Shown in pieces: positions 3,885 through 46,653 of a DNA stretch of 64,000 nt. The notes under the pieces are model-generated. The model was given only the letters and a program-made list of their open reading frames with translations. It did not search any database and had not been told where the DNA came from. Made by a program: the position numbers and the translations under genes. The stretch comes from Alphaproteobacteria bacterium. GTDB lineage: Bacteria > Pseudomonadota > Alphaproteobacteria > SP197. How positions within the stretch are numbered: position 1 is the first letter of the stretch; each line of letters opens with the position of its first letter. The stretch spans positions 4,373,095 to 4,437,094 of the forward strand of contig OZ219747.1 in NCBI GenBank assembly GCA_964291265.2. Reading direction: 5' to 3'.

Positions 3885-4024
3885 CACAATGCCGCCACCG
3901 TGCGGTGATCGATGGACGACACACTCAAGTCCATGGTAACCACGCCCAACGAGGGTTGCCGACAAGCAGTCTCGGTGGGACGAACCGGTGAGCCGGAGCA
4001 TGTCGGGTTGATGTGGAGCATCGC

Positions 4025-5176
4025 ATGACGCGCCCGAACCGCTACATCATCAGGATGGCTGCGTTCCTCCTCGTTGTGCTGGTCATCGCCGCCTTCCTGT
4101 CAGCGACGCTGCTCGTCGCCTTCCAGGCGAACCCCCTGCTCAACGGGCTGATTCTCGGCGTCCTTCTGTTCGGCATCCTCTATGTCTTCCGGCAACCCCA
4201 GATGCTCTACCGGGAGGTCGCCTGGATCGACAGTTTCCGCACGTCGCATGCTGGCATCCAGACAACCCCCCGGCTGCTCGTGCCGATGGCCGCCATGCTC
4301 GGCAAGCGCCGGTCTTCCGGTGCAGGGTTCAGCCTCACCCCGACGTCGACGCGCTCGATCCTCGACAGCATCGGCGCCAGACTCGACGAGTCCCGCGAGA
4401 TTTCGCGGTACCTCATCGGTCTCCTCATCTTTCTCGGACTGCTGGGAACCTTCTGGGGTCTCATCAAGACCATCGGCGGAGTCAGCGCGACGCTCACCAC
4501 GCTCAATCTCGACCCCGGACAGGACATTGTCGGTCTCTTCGAAAGCCTCAAGGAAGGCATGGCGTCGCCCCTGTCAGGCATGGGGACGGCCTTCAGCTCG
4601 TCACTCTTCGGACTTGCCGGATCCCTGATCCTCGGCTTTCTCGACCTGCAGTCCGGTCAGGCCCTCAACCGGTTCTACAACGAACTGGAGGAGTGGCTGT
4701 CATCCGTGACACGACTCCATTCCGAACGTGGCGACGGTGACACCCCGGATGGGGGTGACGCACCGGCCTACGTCAGCGCCCTCCTCGAGAAGACCGCCGA
4801 GAGCCTCGACCGCCTCAGCATCACCCTCGACAAGAACTTCGCGAACCACAGGCAGATCGACGAGAAGATCTCCACGCTCACGGACAGACTCGTCTCCATG
4901 GTCGACCGCATCGGCGCCGAGCAGAGACAGCTCGGCACGCTGATCGAGAGCCTGGCGGATCTCAGGGTGGTCATCCACAACCTGATCGAGACACAGAGGA
5001 GCACTGCCTTCGACGAAGCCAGCCGGATGCATCTTCGCAATCTCGACGATGCCATGGGCCGCCTCGTCGAGGAGACCGCTTCGGGACGGAGTGCCATCGC
5101 CAACGACGTGCGCTCGGAAATCAGGTTGCTGGCACGCACCATCGCGGCGGTACGCTCCGACGACGGAGGCACCTAG
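4025..5176 (+). CDS. MotA/TolQ/ExbB-like proton channel membrane protein with C-terminal helical tail
   Basis: TM segments LIFLGLLGTFWGL and GMGTAFSSSLFGLAGSLILG; directly followed by a MotB/OmpA-type gene. Confidence 0.85.
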   Translation: MTRPNRYIIRMAAFLLVVLVIAAFLSATLLVAFQANPLLNGLILGVLLFGILYVFRQPQMLYREVAWIDSFRTSHAGIQTTPRLLVPMAAMLGKRRSSGAGFSLTPTSTRSILDSIGARLDESREISRYLIGLLIFLGLLGTFWGLIKTIGGVSATLTTLNLDPGQDIVGLFESLKEGMASPLSGMGTAFSSSLFGLAGSLILGFLDLQSGQALNRFYNELEEWLSSVTRLHSERGDGDTPDGGDAPAYVSALLEKTAESLDRLSITLDKNFANHRQIDEKISTLTDRLVSMVDRIGAEQRQLGTLIESLADLRVVIHNLIETQRSTAFDEASRMHLRNLDDAMGRLVEETASGRSAIANDVRSEIRLLARTIAAVRSDDGGT

Positions 5177-5180
5177 GTTC

Positions 5181-6857
5181 ATGGCCTCCCGCGGCCGCCG
5201 TACGCAGTCGGGTGGTGAGACCTGGGCCGGATTTGTCGATGCGCTGTCAGCCTTGCTGATGGTGCTGATCTTCGCCCTGTCGGTCTTCATGATGGCACAG
5301 CTCTTCCAGGGAGCCGCCCTGACCGGCCAGAACCAGGTGATGAGTCGGCTGCAGGCCCGGATCAATGACCTCACCGACATGCTGTCCCTGGAACGCGACA
5401 ACAACGCGACGGTCCGCGAACAGCTGACACGGCTCTCGGCAGAACTTCAGCAGTCGGCGGCAGCCCGGGATCACGCGAACCGGTCGCTCGCCCTCCTGTC
5501 GAGTGAGCACGACGCACTGCAAGCGGAACGTTCGGCTCTTGAGGCGAGAGTGCTCGCCAGCGAACGGGAGCTTGACGATGCGCGGGCACACCTCCAACTG
5601 TTGGCAGAAGATCTCGACGGCACTCGGGACGATGCGGCGGCCAGCAAGGACGCTCTGGCGCGCAGGTCGGTTCAACTCGCCAGCCTGCAGCGCGACATCG
5701 ATGCCCTCGAGCAGGTACGGCGCAATCTCGAAGGTGAAGTCGGACGCTTGTTGCTGGTTCTTGAGGAGGCCCAGGTCCTTGAAGCGGACCTCGAGCGCCG
5801 CTTGGCAGATCTGGACGCCGAACTCTCGCAGACACGAACCGCGCTCGCTCAACGCGAGACGGAGCTGAGCCTCACCGAGGCCGGTCTCCAGGAGTCACGG
5901 GGCAGAGAGGAAGAACTCGCACAGACCCTCAAGACAGAGCGCAGCGAACTCGAACGCCTTGCTCTCCTGCTCCGGCAGTCCCGCGAGGCGGAGGAGCGGA
6001 CGGCCGAGGCGCTCGCAGCGAGAGAACTGCAACTCGAGGATGCAGGGACAAGAATTGACCAACTCATCGCGTCACTCTCCTCCGTGCGCGACCGTACGCT
6101 GGAACTGGAAGCCGAGCTTTCCACCGAAGAGGAACGCAACCTTCTCGCCCAACGGGAAGTGGCCGACAGCAACCAGCAAATCACCGAACTCACACGGCGG
6201 CTCGGCATCGTCGAGGGCGAACGGGATCGGGCTGTGGAACTGGGTGGTTCGCAGGCACAGCAGATCGCCGACCTGCGAGACCGCCTGGCCTCGCTCAACA
6301 GTGTCCTCGAGGCAGCCGAGATCAAGGCTGCCCAGGATCTGGTGCAGATCACGTCGCTGGGCGAGAGGCTCAATGCCGCGCTGGCTGCCCGGGTTCAGGA
6401 TCTCAGCCGTTATCAGAGCGACTTCCTGGCCCGCCTGCACGACCATCTCGGCAACCGGGAGGGCGTGAAGGTCGAGGGTGACCGATTCATCATCCAGTCG
6501 GGTGTGCTTTTCTCCAGCGGCAGCGCGGACATTTCCGAAGCGGGCCGGGAGAACCTGCGTCAGATTGCGGACCTCATCCGTGGACTTGTCTCCGACATCC
6601 CCGACGATGTGGACTGGATCCTCAGGGTGGACGGCCACACCGACTCGAAGCCGATCCAGACGACCCGGTTCCCGAGCAACTGGGAGCTGTCGACGGCCCG
6701 CGCCACCTCCGTCGTCCGCTTCCTGATCTCCCTGGGTGTGCCCGAACATCGCCTGATGGCCGCCGGTCTCAGCGAATTCCGGCCCCTTGCCGCCGGAGAG
6801 GATACCGACACCATGCAGCGCAATCGCCGAATCGAATTCAAGCTGACCGACCCTTGA
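5181..6857 (+). CDS. MotB/OmpA-family peptidoglycan-binding protein with long coiled coil
   Basis: N-terminal WAGFVDALSALLMV TM with Asp, long heptad-rich region, C-terminal VDGHTD...NWELSTARA...NRRIEF OmpA domain. Confidence 0.88.
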   Translation: MASRGRRTQSGGETWAGFVDALSALLMVLIFALSVFMMAQLFQGAALTGQNQVMSRLQARINDLTDMLSLERDNNATVREQLTRLSAELQQSAAARDHANRSLALLSSEHDALQAERSALEARVLASERELDDARAHLQLLAEDLDGTRDDAAASKDALARRSVQLASLQRDIDALEQVRRNLEGEVGRLLLVLEEAQVLEADLERRLADLDAELSQTRTALAQRETELSLTEAGLQESRGREEELAQTLKTERSELERLALLLRQSREAEERTAEALAARELQLEDAGTRIDQLIASLSSVRDRTLELEAELSTEEERNLLAQREVADSNQQITELTRRLGIVEGERDRAVELGGSQAQQIADLRDRLASLNSVLEAAEIKAAQDLVQITSLGERLNAALAARVQDLSRYQSDFLARLHDHLGNREGVKVEGDRFIIQSGVLFSSGSADISEAGRENLRQIADLIRGLVSDIPDDVDWILRVDGHTDSKPIQTTRFPSNWELSTARATSVVRFLISLGVPEHRLMAAGLSEFRPLAAGEDTDTMQRNRRIEFKLTDP

Positions 6858-43534: not shown

Positions 43535-43993
43535 TCAGCCGAGCCGTTTCCTGACCAGAGCACTCGCGGCAGCGCCATCGAAACGTCCCGGATAGAACCC
43601 CTTGAGCAGGGCCATGACCCGGCCCATGTCCTTGAGGCTGACGGCATCGCACTCGACTATGGCGTCATCCACGCAACGTGCCAACTCTTCCGGGTTCATC
43701 GGGTGCGGCATGAAACGTGTGATGATGGAGACCTCCGCCTCCTCCCGCTCCGCCAGTTCCGCCCGGTTTCCCTGGCGGAACTGTTCGGCGGCCTCCCGCC
43801 TCTGACGCACCATCTTGGCAAGAATGCCTATCGCCTGTTCGTCGCTCACCGTCTGCGTGACACCGTTGGCGCGTGAAGCGATCTCGTGGTCCTTGAGGGC
43901 GGCGATGACGAGCCTCAACGTCGACGTCGCGATCCCGTCCTGGGTCTTGACCGCCTGTTTGAGGGCTTCCGTGATCTGCTGCCTGATGGACAT
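43535..43993 (-). CDS. GatB/YqeY domain protein
   Basis: LKQAVK...TLRLVIAALKD...KMVRQRRE...KDMGRVM; upstream of dnaG. Confidence 0.92.
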   Translation of the reverse strand: MSIRQQITEALKQAVKTQDGIATSTLRLVIAALKDHEIASRANGVTQTVSDEQAIGILAKMVRQRREAAEQFRQGNRAELAEREEAEVSIITRFMPHPMNPEELARCVDDAIVECDAVSLKDMGRVMALLKGFYPGRFDGAAASALVRKRLG

Positions 43994-44027
43994 CGCGCTG
44001 ATCTTGATCACCTGATTGCAAGGGGGG

Positions 44028-45309
44028 GGGGGTTACATCGTTGACTGAAAGGCAATGTTGCGGGACTGATCAAGCGTGTGGTTCGGGATCGCCTTCCCCG
44101 CCCCACCAAACGGCCAATGGAGGCCGACCGCGCATGGCGAACGATACCGAACACCGACAGATTGTCTATCGGCTGCTTCCCGGACCCCGGAAGAAAGCAC
44201 GCAGGCTGGCTGCTCTCGCTCACCGCCTGCCGCTTCGTCCGGAACACCATGCTCGACCGGCTTGGAACAGCGGCGAGACTGGCGGGTGCGGAACGGCTAA
44301 CCCGAGCGTTTCGTTCTTCACGGCTCGGCAAGGCCTTCATCCTGGCTTCGCCGGTTGACGCCGTGCTTGCAGGAGATGCCGCAGGATCAGGCGGATGCGT
44401 GGCAGCTATGTTTCAGGGGGCTGAGGCGGCCGCACGAAGTTCAGGCGGCGCGGGCATGACAGCGTGTGCGCTCCCGGGCGCCATCCGCATCCTTCAGACG
44501 GCACGCTCCACGTTCAGGAAGATCGGGCCGATGACGCTGCGCCGCAGGGGAGGGAACCCATGCTCCGACGGCGTGTCGGTCCGCGCCGTCATCAATCAAG
44601 CGGATTGACGGCACGTGGCATGCGATCCGTCCGCTGCAGGATGGCGGCTGTCGTGCACCGGCGACGACGGCGCCGTGACCGGCATCGACATGAACGTGGG
44701 CCAGGTGACCACCAGCTTCATGCACCGGTGACGGACCGCCTCGAAGCGCGATGCCAGCGGTGGCAGCGCAGGATGTCGCGCGGCAGCAGGCGGCGTGAAC
44801 GCACCCGCCGCCGCCATGCCCGGACGGTGTGCAGGATGGCCATGAAACGGTGCAACCGGCAGCACCACGTCTCGCGGAAGCTGGCCGGCGGAACGGTCGT
44901 CGTGGAAGGTCCGAAGACCGCCAACATGACCAGGAGTGCAAAGGGCACGGTCGAGCATCCCGGGACGAACGTGAAGGCGAGGTCCGGGTTGAACCGCGGG
45001 ATCCTTGCCACGGGCCGGGGCGAGTTGCGGACGATGCTCGCCTGCAAGGCACCGCGCCTCGTCTGAGGTGAACGCGGCGCATGCAGCCAGACGTGTGCGA
45101 AGTGCAACAACGGCTTGACGCCGCCTCGCGTCCGTCACAGGCGACATTCACATGCTCAGGCCATGCGGACCTGAATGCGGCCCGCGACATCAGGCGCCGG
45201 GGACTGGCGCATCGGCACGGGGATGGAGCGTTGCCGCCAGGCACTCCGATGATCCGTGACACGGATCGCAGACTGCGGCATGAGCCTTTCAGTCAACGAT
45301 ACAAGTCCC
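44028..45309 (+). mobile_element. Non-autonomous TIR-bounded element carrying a tnpB pseudogene
   Basis: IR 44037-44053 ATCGTTGACTGAAAGGC is the exact reverse complement of 45284-45300, extendable to 22/26. TTGCAAG occurs at 44016-44022 and 45311-45317. Confidence 0.8.
44134..45290 (+). pseudogene. tnpB: TnpB (IS605 OrfB-type RNA-guided nuclease), frameshifted
   Basis: GGAGG RBS; IVYRLLP..ACRFVRN, RuvC-I GIDMNV (44681), VVVEG..NMTRSAKGT..NVKARSGLNRGIL, SQTCAKC, RuvC-III HADLNAARDI, spread across frames. Confidence 0.88.
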
Positions 45310-45440
45310 GTTGCAAGCTGGTCGAGCCGTACATCAGATCGCCGACAAGGGCGAGTCGTTTCCCTCGCACGGTCTCGATACGACTCCGGTGGATAGATTC
45401 CAACAGCGTGATAATGTGACGTTTCTCGCCCCAAGGACGC

Positions 45441-45498: not shown

Positions 45499-46653
45499 AT
45501 GTCCCCATCCGTTTCACAGTCGCCGCCGTGGGCCACGGCGTGCATGATGCTTGCGGATGGTTCAGTGTTCTGGGGTCACGGAATCGGCGCCACCGGGCGC
45601 GCCATCGGTGAGCTGTGTTTCAACACCGCCATGACCGGCTATCAGGAAATCGTGACAGATCCCTCCTATGCCGGCCAGATCATCACCTTCACCTTTCCCC
45701 ATGTCGGAAACACCGGCGCGAACGGCGAGGATATCGAGGCACAGGCACCGGCAGCCCGCGGCATCGTGATCCGCGATGCGATCACCGATCCATCGAGCTT
45801 TCGCGCCAGCGGACATTTCGACGGATGGCTGCGCGCCCACAACATCGTCGGCATTGCCGGAGTCGACACGCGCCGCCTGACCCGGCTGGTGCGATCCCGC
45901 GGGTTCCAGACGGCCGGCATCGATCACGGCACCATCGACTGCCTCGGGCTCGCCGGCGAACTTGCTGCCTGGCCGGGGCTCGAAGGCATGGACCTCGCCC
46001 GCGACGTCACCTGTCGGCAGACATACACCTGGACCGAAGGCACCTGGTCCCTGCCATGCTGCCCTGCACAGGCACCGTCGCCGCACCGCCATGTCGTCGC
46101 CGTGGACTACGGGGTCAAGCGGAACATTCTGCGGAATCTCGTCTCCCTGGGATGCCGGGTGACGGTCGTGCCGGCAACATCGGACATTGGCGACATCATG
46201 TGCCATCGTCCCGATGGCATTCTTCTTTCCAACGGACCCGGTGACCCCGCCGCCACCGGTATATGGGCGGTACCGGTGATCCGCGACCTCCTGAATACGG
46301 GAAAGCCGGTCTTCGGAATCTGTCTGGGCCACCAGTTGCTGGCGCTGGCGCTGGGCGCAAGGACGCTGAAGATGGTGAACGGCCATCGCGGCGCCAACCA
46401 TCCTGTGAGGAACCTGGAAACCGGAAGGGTGGAGATCACCTGCCAGAACCACGGGTTTGTCGTCGACCCCGACAGTCTTCCCGACAATGCCGTGATCACC
46501 CACACGTCACTCTTCGACGGCACCCTGGCCGGTTTCAGGATCAGGGAAAAACCAGTCTTTTCCGTCCAGTACCATCCCGAAGCGAGTCCCGGACCACAGG
46601 ACAGCCGCTACCTCTTCCAGTCCTTCATCCAGGCCTTGGAGAATCATGCCTGA
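45499..46653 (+). CDS. carA: Carbamoyl-phosphate synthase small subunit
   Basis: [34 protein letters not shown]. Confidence 0.97.

Follow-up and report, generated by a model that had tools for sequence, protein, structure and literature searches.

The window, i.e. the whole stretch of 64,000 nucleotides analysed here, harbours a dead element of 1.3 kb that carries tnpB as its only gene between ends of the IS1595 type and that was likely moved in trans, while in its intact relatives the guide would start at the target-site duplication (TSD) and the TAM would be short and end in G. From our point of view this reading, taken as a whole, is a probable one.

The tnpB insertion and its empty site

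The insertion and its surroundings comprise the following features (window coordinates).

43535..44011, minus strand: left flanking host gene, putative yqeY (open reading frame; present in the empty allele)
44013..44014, plus strand: TG immediately before the left duplication, candidate TAM (suggested by the G at -1 and the TG counts)
44015..44022, plus strand: left 8-bp duplication copy, ATTGCAAG (runs X4 and X5 show the empty allele with a single copy)
44023..44027, plus strand: surplus G's in a G run that varies in length, likely slippage (four G's fewer in runs X2 and X3)
44028..44053, plus strand: left terminal inverted repeat (TIR) of the IS1595 type (end type as on the autonomous IS1595 elements L074, L075, L076 and L214)
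44134..45283, plus strand: tnpB pseudogene with many frameshifts and deletions (intact relatives exceed the cut-off of the TnpB model NF040570)
44687, 44905 and 45168, plus strand: RuvC-I D, RuvC-II E and RuvC-III D in the tnpB pseudogene
45194..45309, plus strand: predicted omega-RNA scaffold (covariation over 57 right ends)
45194-45210, plus strand: scaffold hairpin
45200-45205 with 45304-45309, plus strand: pseudoknot of the hairpin loop with the element end
45216-45220 / 45254-45258, plus strand: scaffold stem, enclosing a further stem
45284..45309, minus strand: right TIR, directly after the tnpB stop codon
45310..45317, plus strand: right 8-bp duplication copy, GTTGCAAG, predicted guide start (from the pseudoknot register)
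45499..46653, plus strand: right flanking host gene, putative carA (open reading frame; present in the empty allele)

The initial annotation of this DNA had described a perfect 17-bp inverted repeat that can be extended to 22 of 26 positions, and this description holds: the core lies at 44037-44053 / 45284-45300 and the full repeat of 26 nt (85% matching) reaches the right boundary of the element at 45309. The core recurs 23 times in the same genome at up to two mismatches, nearly always at the end of an element, and the repeat is not a matter of chance. The duplication proposed on both sides of the insert is also present, its length being, however, 8 bp with copies that differ at the first base and not 7 bp. 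Its left copy is indeed set apart from the inverted repeat by extra G's of a G11 run, the length of which varies, since the insert is present in runs X2 and X3 with a G run that is shorter by four.

An empty spacer with a single target had been predicted for relatives lacking the insert, and it was found in two sequencing runs from two studies. In run X4, one contig bridges the site, skips 1295 bases and joins 44015 to 45311, with seven letters at the junction fitting both sides, and in run X5 the sequence passes from 44021 straight into right-flank-like sequence (read by eye). Because of these empty alleles, the two 8-mers can be traced to a single target that has since undergone one change.

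The cargo of the insert is the frameshifted tnpB with RuvC remnants that had been recognised initially. Compared with the intact relative L039, it shows 78% DNA identity with 25 gap openings, and its protein match is split across three frames. The acidic residues of RuvC I, II and III and the first CxxC can still be read, the second CxxC is deleted, and a 115-aa in-frame piece matches 509 TnpB-family proteins among 1274 candidates. Intact relatives have an upstream in-frame tnpB start, the equivalent of which lies near 44057 in the window. The window copy is thus dead, as had been suspected, and represents the fossil of an element of about 1.3 kb that held only tnpB.

Elsewhere in the same genome, at C2:1326417 (L006), a solo left TIR with TG before an 8-mer has no element behind it; it was considered as an autonomous partner and rejected, as no transposase-like frame could be seen by eye. 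At G000:C2:3967186-3972506 (L003), a copy of the cassette is split by a 5.3-kb insert. The TIR scan also returned another multi-copy repeat with identical flanking text, at G000:C2:157347 and about 16 other places, which is probably a different insertion sequence.

A family of tnpB cassettes

In the genome of the window, 34 BLASTN pieces of the element occur and not one of the 16 protein hits falls within a reading frame that stays free of stops for more than 250 aa, so that no intact copy was found there. Eighteen of the 61 genomes searched match the cassette, among them 13 of the 22 other genomes of the genus, and four of the 18 hold unbroken copies; the existence of intact relatives, previously only surmised, is thereby established. 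A wider genome scan, from which the best 80 of 155 confirmed stretches were kept as 78 loci, returned sequences titled Alpha- and Gammaproteobacteria, Rhodothermales, Caldilineaceae and others, several of these names being those of sponge symbionts.

The inverted repeat and the duplication recur in this family, as had been predicted at the outset. A TIR together with a TSD matching at 7 or more of 8 positions was present in 47 of the 78 loci, perfectly so in 38, whereas mismatched pairings gave 2 of 150 and no perfect case. In a second approach the ends were called by a weight matrix over 134 loci, which, being trained on 44 TIR/TSD-defined elements, is not fully independent of the TSD; after removal of duplicates and of loci without an end, 61 loci remained, with a perfect TSD in 36 and at least 7/8 in 43. 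The cassettes are about 1.2-1.5 kb long and tnpB is their sole gene. By alignment count, 56 of the 58 frames that reach 330 aa or more retain the D-E-D triad, three intact relatives score 190-207 bits on NF040570 (cut-off 100), and the zinc finger and RuvC D-E-D typical of TnpB are both found in the intact relatives. Within the clade, the TnpBs are about 41-60% identical to each other.

A FastTree of 157 rows unites the 58 frames in one clade (support 0.99) that also takes in 39 context-free proteins and leaves out five inspected plasmid relatives. The addition of distant rows lowered the support: in a tree of 197 rows, the smallest clade with all TIR members has a support of 0.39 (1.0 one node up) and includes TnpBs without a recognisable TIR (L337 and L260, with L261 an ambiguous case). 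Five of 154 mostly distant metagenome and viral loci have a TIR-like right end, three of them within the clade.

Several single loci deserve mention. On a viral contig (L337:3001-4270), an in-clade TnpB with an unbroken frame of 418 aa and no TIR stands beside phage structural-like genes and may be a domesticated copy whose guide is fixed. At L040:1060-1095, the left TIR shows a tandem duplication of its first 13 bases. At L002:1850-2600, a cassette is separated from a second right end by short repeated ORFs that end in a hydrophobic tail. In L021 and L044, from two genomes of the genus, one and the same right flank adjoins a full cassette in one genome and an internally deleted cassette in the other.

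IS1595 ends and a transposase acting in trans

Elements of the IS1595 family have TIRs starting with GG and produce 8-bp TSDs at AT-rich targets (PMC8101967). The cassettes resemble them, in the features which that source describes, in all of these traits and in having identical or nearly identical ends in the same genomes, and the TSD profile is AT-rich in the cassettes and in the IS1595 elements alike. They differ from IS1595 in that they have no transposase, carry tnpB as their only cargo, have imperfect ends and show a flank motif on one side only.

The initial annotation had suggested a search for autonomous elements that share the inverted repeat, and such elements, which we take to belong to the ISNwi1 subgroup, do exist. 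L074, L075, L076 and L077 are IS1595 elements of 2.5-3.1 kb with cassette-type ends and perfect 8-bp TSDs, the end type of the autonomous L214 is likewise that of the cassettes, and L060 scores 191 bits on NF033547, over the cut-off. PF12762 exceeds its cut-off in the genome of the window (two of three hits), in four of five genus relatives and in 20 of 20 further hosts vs 1 of 14 control genomes, a control set that holds no cassette-free genomes from the same habitat. The ends of the cassettes fall into several inner types, each of which is nearest to a different autonomous element, with up to 16 of 16 inner positions identical. Since these types appear scattered over the TnpB tree (by eye), L153 carrying the type of L108 and the type of the window occurring in two distant branches, they suggest that ends have been swapped between IS1595 subfamilies.

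No transposase was found together with tnpB within one TIR pair among the 29 IS1595 elements that could be delimited from 70 IS1595 loci (L075 and L076 not being among the 29). tnpB matches occurred at four of the 70 loci, of which L220 and L215 are separate cassettes, the other two being L242 and L238. Conversely, IS1595 hits near cassettes were seen at 2 of 78 loci, where they belong to separate or enclosing elements, and at none of 160 further loci. The cassettes thus have no DDE_Tnp_IS1595 domain of their own and are therefore regarded as non-autonomous IS1595 derivatives and not as strict members of the family. Because of the shared ends and the co-occurrence in 20 of 20 genomes, we consider it likely that the cassette is moved in trans by an IS1595 transposase. 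Of the initial proposal that tnpB is held by an element of the TIR/DDE type moving in trans, the TIR/TSD architecture and the ends shared with IS1595 are hence observed, and the movement itself is deduced from them.

In the genome of the window, both IS1595 transposases look damaged: L058 (83% identical to L060) has N in place of what we take to be the second catalytic D, whereas L057, besides being truncated, is altered in what is presumably the first catalytic motif. Neither can therefore be pointed to as the helper of the window copy, and the right end of the helper at C2:946341 was not found within about 31 kb. The damage, together with a helper search that covered IS1595 only, could speak for a mover from a different DDE family, likewise one that duplicates 8 bp of its target. 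Such a mover would, however, have to explain why cassettes and IS1595 agree at up to 16 of 16 inner TIR positions and why both have the same AT-rich TSD profile, and we regard it as highly improbable.

IS1595 elements also carry other genes. DNA methyltransferase-like genes were seen by eye downstream of the transposase in L057, L058, L064 and L072, and at L143:3780-8305 an IS1595 element with a methyltransferase-like passenger also holds, in its 5' region, a nested tnpB cassette (3895-5293, perfect TSD).

Predicted omega-RNA and guide start

The right ends of the cassettes are predicted to encode the omega-RNA scaffold. In an alignment of 57 of 77 right ends, from which near-duplicates and decayed copies were left out, RNAalifold proposes a 5-bp hairpin and a nested stem with changes on both sides at 10 of 15 pairs, and the 7-nt loop of the hairpin is complementary to the last six bases of the TIR. 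In the full model of 24 pairs, 93.1% of cells pair vs 82.0% after shuffling and 33-52% in slid controls, a comparison that favours the model over the slid controls, the structure having been read from the same sequences that were scored. The pseudoknot alone is paired in 88.6% of cells and has changes on both sides at three of six pairs (in 4, 3 and 3 rows); one of its pairs is unpaired in 22 of the 57 rows, its G-C pairs barely vary, and the G's of the loop double as a Gly codon. In L337, which is outside the alignment and has no TIR, two loop bases and their partners are changed with all six pairs kept (by eye).

A pseudoknot between loop and end is described as general for TnpB (10.1101/2023.11.20.567912; PMC10097598, in the parts covered). 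By eye, the hairpin of IS605-like relatives with 33-39% identity pairs in the same manner, with a G-U-C that stands two bases ahead of their end; these relatives have a subterminal hairpin, which the cassette lacks. Since the pseudoknot engages the six terminal bases of the right TIR, the duplication is the likely beginning of the guide, and the model predicts the guide start at the first TSD base or within one or two bases of it. A guide start at an internal TCAA of the TIR was rejected, as this motif is missing in many clade members.

The same ends bear on the view that an IS605/IS1341 tnpB element with hairpin ends of its own is nested in an unrelated MITE. It might draw on the TCAA that stands 13 bases from the end in the right TIR of the window subfamily and on the five inspected plasmid relatives with IS605-type ends, two of which have a Y1 transposase. 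In the cassettes, however, the TIR directly follows the stop codon, no Y1 subterminal hairpin was seen, many clade members lack TCAA, and the partner of the pseudoknot loop is the terminus of the TIR itself. IS605-type hairpin/TCAA ends inside the inverted repeats, which had been named at the outset as the finding that would speak against capture, were not seen at the right ends of the cassettes. Nesting is thus largely refuted, and we give it hardly any credence. An IS607-type crossover at a direct GG was discarded as well, in view of the inverted ends and the 8-bp duplication.

A one-sided flank signature

Directly before the left TSD copy, at position -1, G is found in 41 of 43 tnpB insertions vs 13 of 29 tnpB-free IS1595 insertions (p = 1.5e-6), whereas the mirror base, C at +1, is found in 16 of 43 vs 12 of 29 (p = 0.81). 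The bias persists within 12 shared genomes (29 of 31 vs 10 of 20) and when each genome contributes a single insertion (20 vs 18 genomes; median p = 9e-5, genomes and TnpB subclades being related). In the window subfamily, TG precedes 14 of 19 raw left ends vs 3 of 32 raw right ends, counts in which one end is misfiled each way and two left ends are out of register. Two complete metagenome elements with perfect TSDs have C (L257) and A (L258) at -1, which brings the total to 41 of 45; L143 has G there. The one-sided G, or TG, is likely a short TAM.

One could also imagine that TnpB is a passive passenger and that the G bias arises from the way in which the transposase handles imperfect ends and not from RNA-guided cutting. 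All copies in the genome of the window are dead, IS1595 elements carry assorted passenger genes, and L257 and L258 are exceptions to the G rule, all of which would be in keeping with this explanation. It is difficult to reconcile, however, with the catalytic triad in 56 of 58 frames and the covariation of the scaffold across proteins that are only about 41-60% identical, and in L105, L113, L147 and L154 the outer 13-14 bases match at both ends, as in the controls, yet the G is present. We therefore deem a mere passenger unlikely.

A further explanation retains the element and its helper and shifts the register: the TAM would be T-G-A, reaching into the duplication, and the guide would start at TSD base 2 or 3, so that the first one or two duplicated bases would belong to the scaffold, much as flank bases are absorbed in IS607 and Fanzor elements. 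A is found at TSD base 1 in 29 of 43 tnpB insertions vs 11 of 29 controls (p = 0.017), and the pseudoknot of ISDra2 spans -2 to -6 and leaves -1 outside, as this register would have it. Arginine often reads G. In ISDra2, Q80 reads TAM position -2 (PMC10097598, in the part covered), and the aligned residue is R in P0002 and, as judged by eye, also in most of the clade. A (67%), however, is far less fixed than G (95%), and the G-U-C register of the IS605-like relatives and of ISDra2 puts the guide start at TSD base 1. The shifted register is accordingly the less probable one, though of the alternatives considered it is the one we take most seriously, and we return to a guide that starts with the duplication.

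Proposed mechanism

A tnpB of the IS605/IS1341 type would have kept the core of its omega-RNA while shedding the Y1 end hairpin and acquiring ends of the IS1595 type. The transposase would insert the cassette at AT-rich 8-mers, the pseudoknot of the omega-RNA is predicted to close on the last bases of the right TIR, and the guide would then consist of the duplication and the downstream flank. An empty allele would offer the TAM and the full target and could be cut, upon which repair from the filled allele would restore or spread the element. The filled allele would be spared, as its left junction matches only eight guide bases and its right junction has C and not G at -1. Insertions without the G would be unprotected and lost, which is our proposal for why the G bias is one-sided. 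A homing role of TnpB has been established for IS605 and IS607 in the account given in bioRxiv 10.1101/2023.11.20.567912; it has been argued in PMC13565253 that cut-and-paste elements gain little from TnpB, a point against the present proposal.

Going further, and tentatively, one could speculate that the cassettes represent a distinct and active TnpB clade which lives only as a hitchhiker of IS1595, with a TAM that has shrunk to one or two bases (G or TG) outside the duplication, the variable 8-bp TSD as guide seed, a pseudoknot that closes on the TIR, and exchanges of the inner TIR by which it follows the resident IS1595 subfamily. This extended view is possible, and we are less inclined to it than to the reading given at the beginning.

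Comparison with known systems

Six DDE-linked TnpB branches (DDE-1 to DDE-6) with inverted terminal repeats, and trans-mobilised solo TnpBs with the same ends, are described in the parts of Altae-Tran et al. (2023; PMC10691335) covered here. That a TnpB inside DDE-type inverted repeats is moved in trans is thus already published, and the novelty initially claimed for the capture of tnpB by a DDE/TIR element was too strong. The likeness extends to TnpB lying between the repeats, to its 3' end near the end of the element (within 250 bp in the DDE branches, the stop codon being 26 bases from the end in the window) and to solo TnpBs that share their ends with transposase elements. The partners named in the covered parts are IS630 (PMC10691335) and ISL2, IS630 and IS1031 (PMC13565253), whereas that of the cassettes is likely IS1595, and a transposase in cis, which is the defining trait of the branches, was not seen in the cassettes; as the branches were compared by their text descriptions, an overlap with one of them is possible. 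Within the text and supplementary parts of PMC10691335 covered, the branch tables and Fig. 4 lying outside them, IS1595 occurs only in a control list, and our literature searches returned no publication whose title points to TnpB with IS1595, and none for TnpB with ISXO2. The IS1595 partnership would hence be new relative to the named DDE partners, and the branch tables may hold such a pairing.

With ISDra2 (IS200/IS605, IS1341), as characterised in the part of PMC10097598 covered, the cassettes share the protein family, the D-E-D triad, the pairing of the first hairpin loop with the 3' end of the scaffold and, probably, homing. They differ in that Y1 transposase and hairpin ends are missing, in that the target of the transposase is not the TAM motif, in an apparent TAM of one or two bases instead of five and in the R that replaces Q80. 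Hairpin ends without TIR and TSD, the hallmarks of IS200/IS605/IS1341 elements, are not what the cassettes show, nor do they resemble IS607 elements, as TIRs and an 8-bp TSD are present, there is no room for a second gene, and NF038280 scores far below its cut-off.

The initial annotation had drawn a parallel to the capture of Fanzor. Fanzor1 and Fanzor2* are likewise TnpB-family nucleases captured by often non-autonomous TIR/TSD elements, in the parts of PMC10711439 and PMC13565253 covered, and PMC13639567, in its covered part, also served for the comparison of Fanzors and TAMs. The parallel thus stands for capture by TIR/TSD elements, and it seems to fail for the use of the TSD. In the Fanzors, the covered parts of PMC10711439 and PMC13565253 place the 5' TSD in the TAM and the 3' TSD in the scaffold, with the pseudoknot lost in Fanzor1, whereas in the cassettes the pseudoknot appears to be kept, the conserved G stands outside an 8-bp TSD of variable sequence, and the guide is predicted to start with this TSD, yet the A bias at TSD base 1 would allow a partial overlap with the Fanzor manner.

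Implications

According to the covered part of a review from 2026, why and how TnpB works with target-duplicating DDE transposons is open (PMC13565253). The cassette family makes this question testable, as it offers intact members in multiple copies, natural empty alleles and a matching transposase that resides in the same genomes, and further handles are the predicted RNA end and a flank signature that is absent from tnpB-free controls. If the extended view of a distinct and active clade is true, compact nucleases with a near-minimal TAM could be drawn from this family as a natural source; should the TAM be G or TG, these nucleases of roughly 400 aa would have a targeting range much wider than that of ISDra2. 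The extended view would, moreover, answer the TAM problem faced by a TnpB that depends on a transposase without target specificity, by a solution unlike that of the Fanzors.
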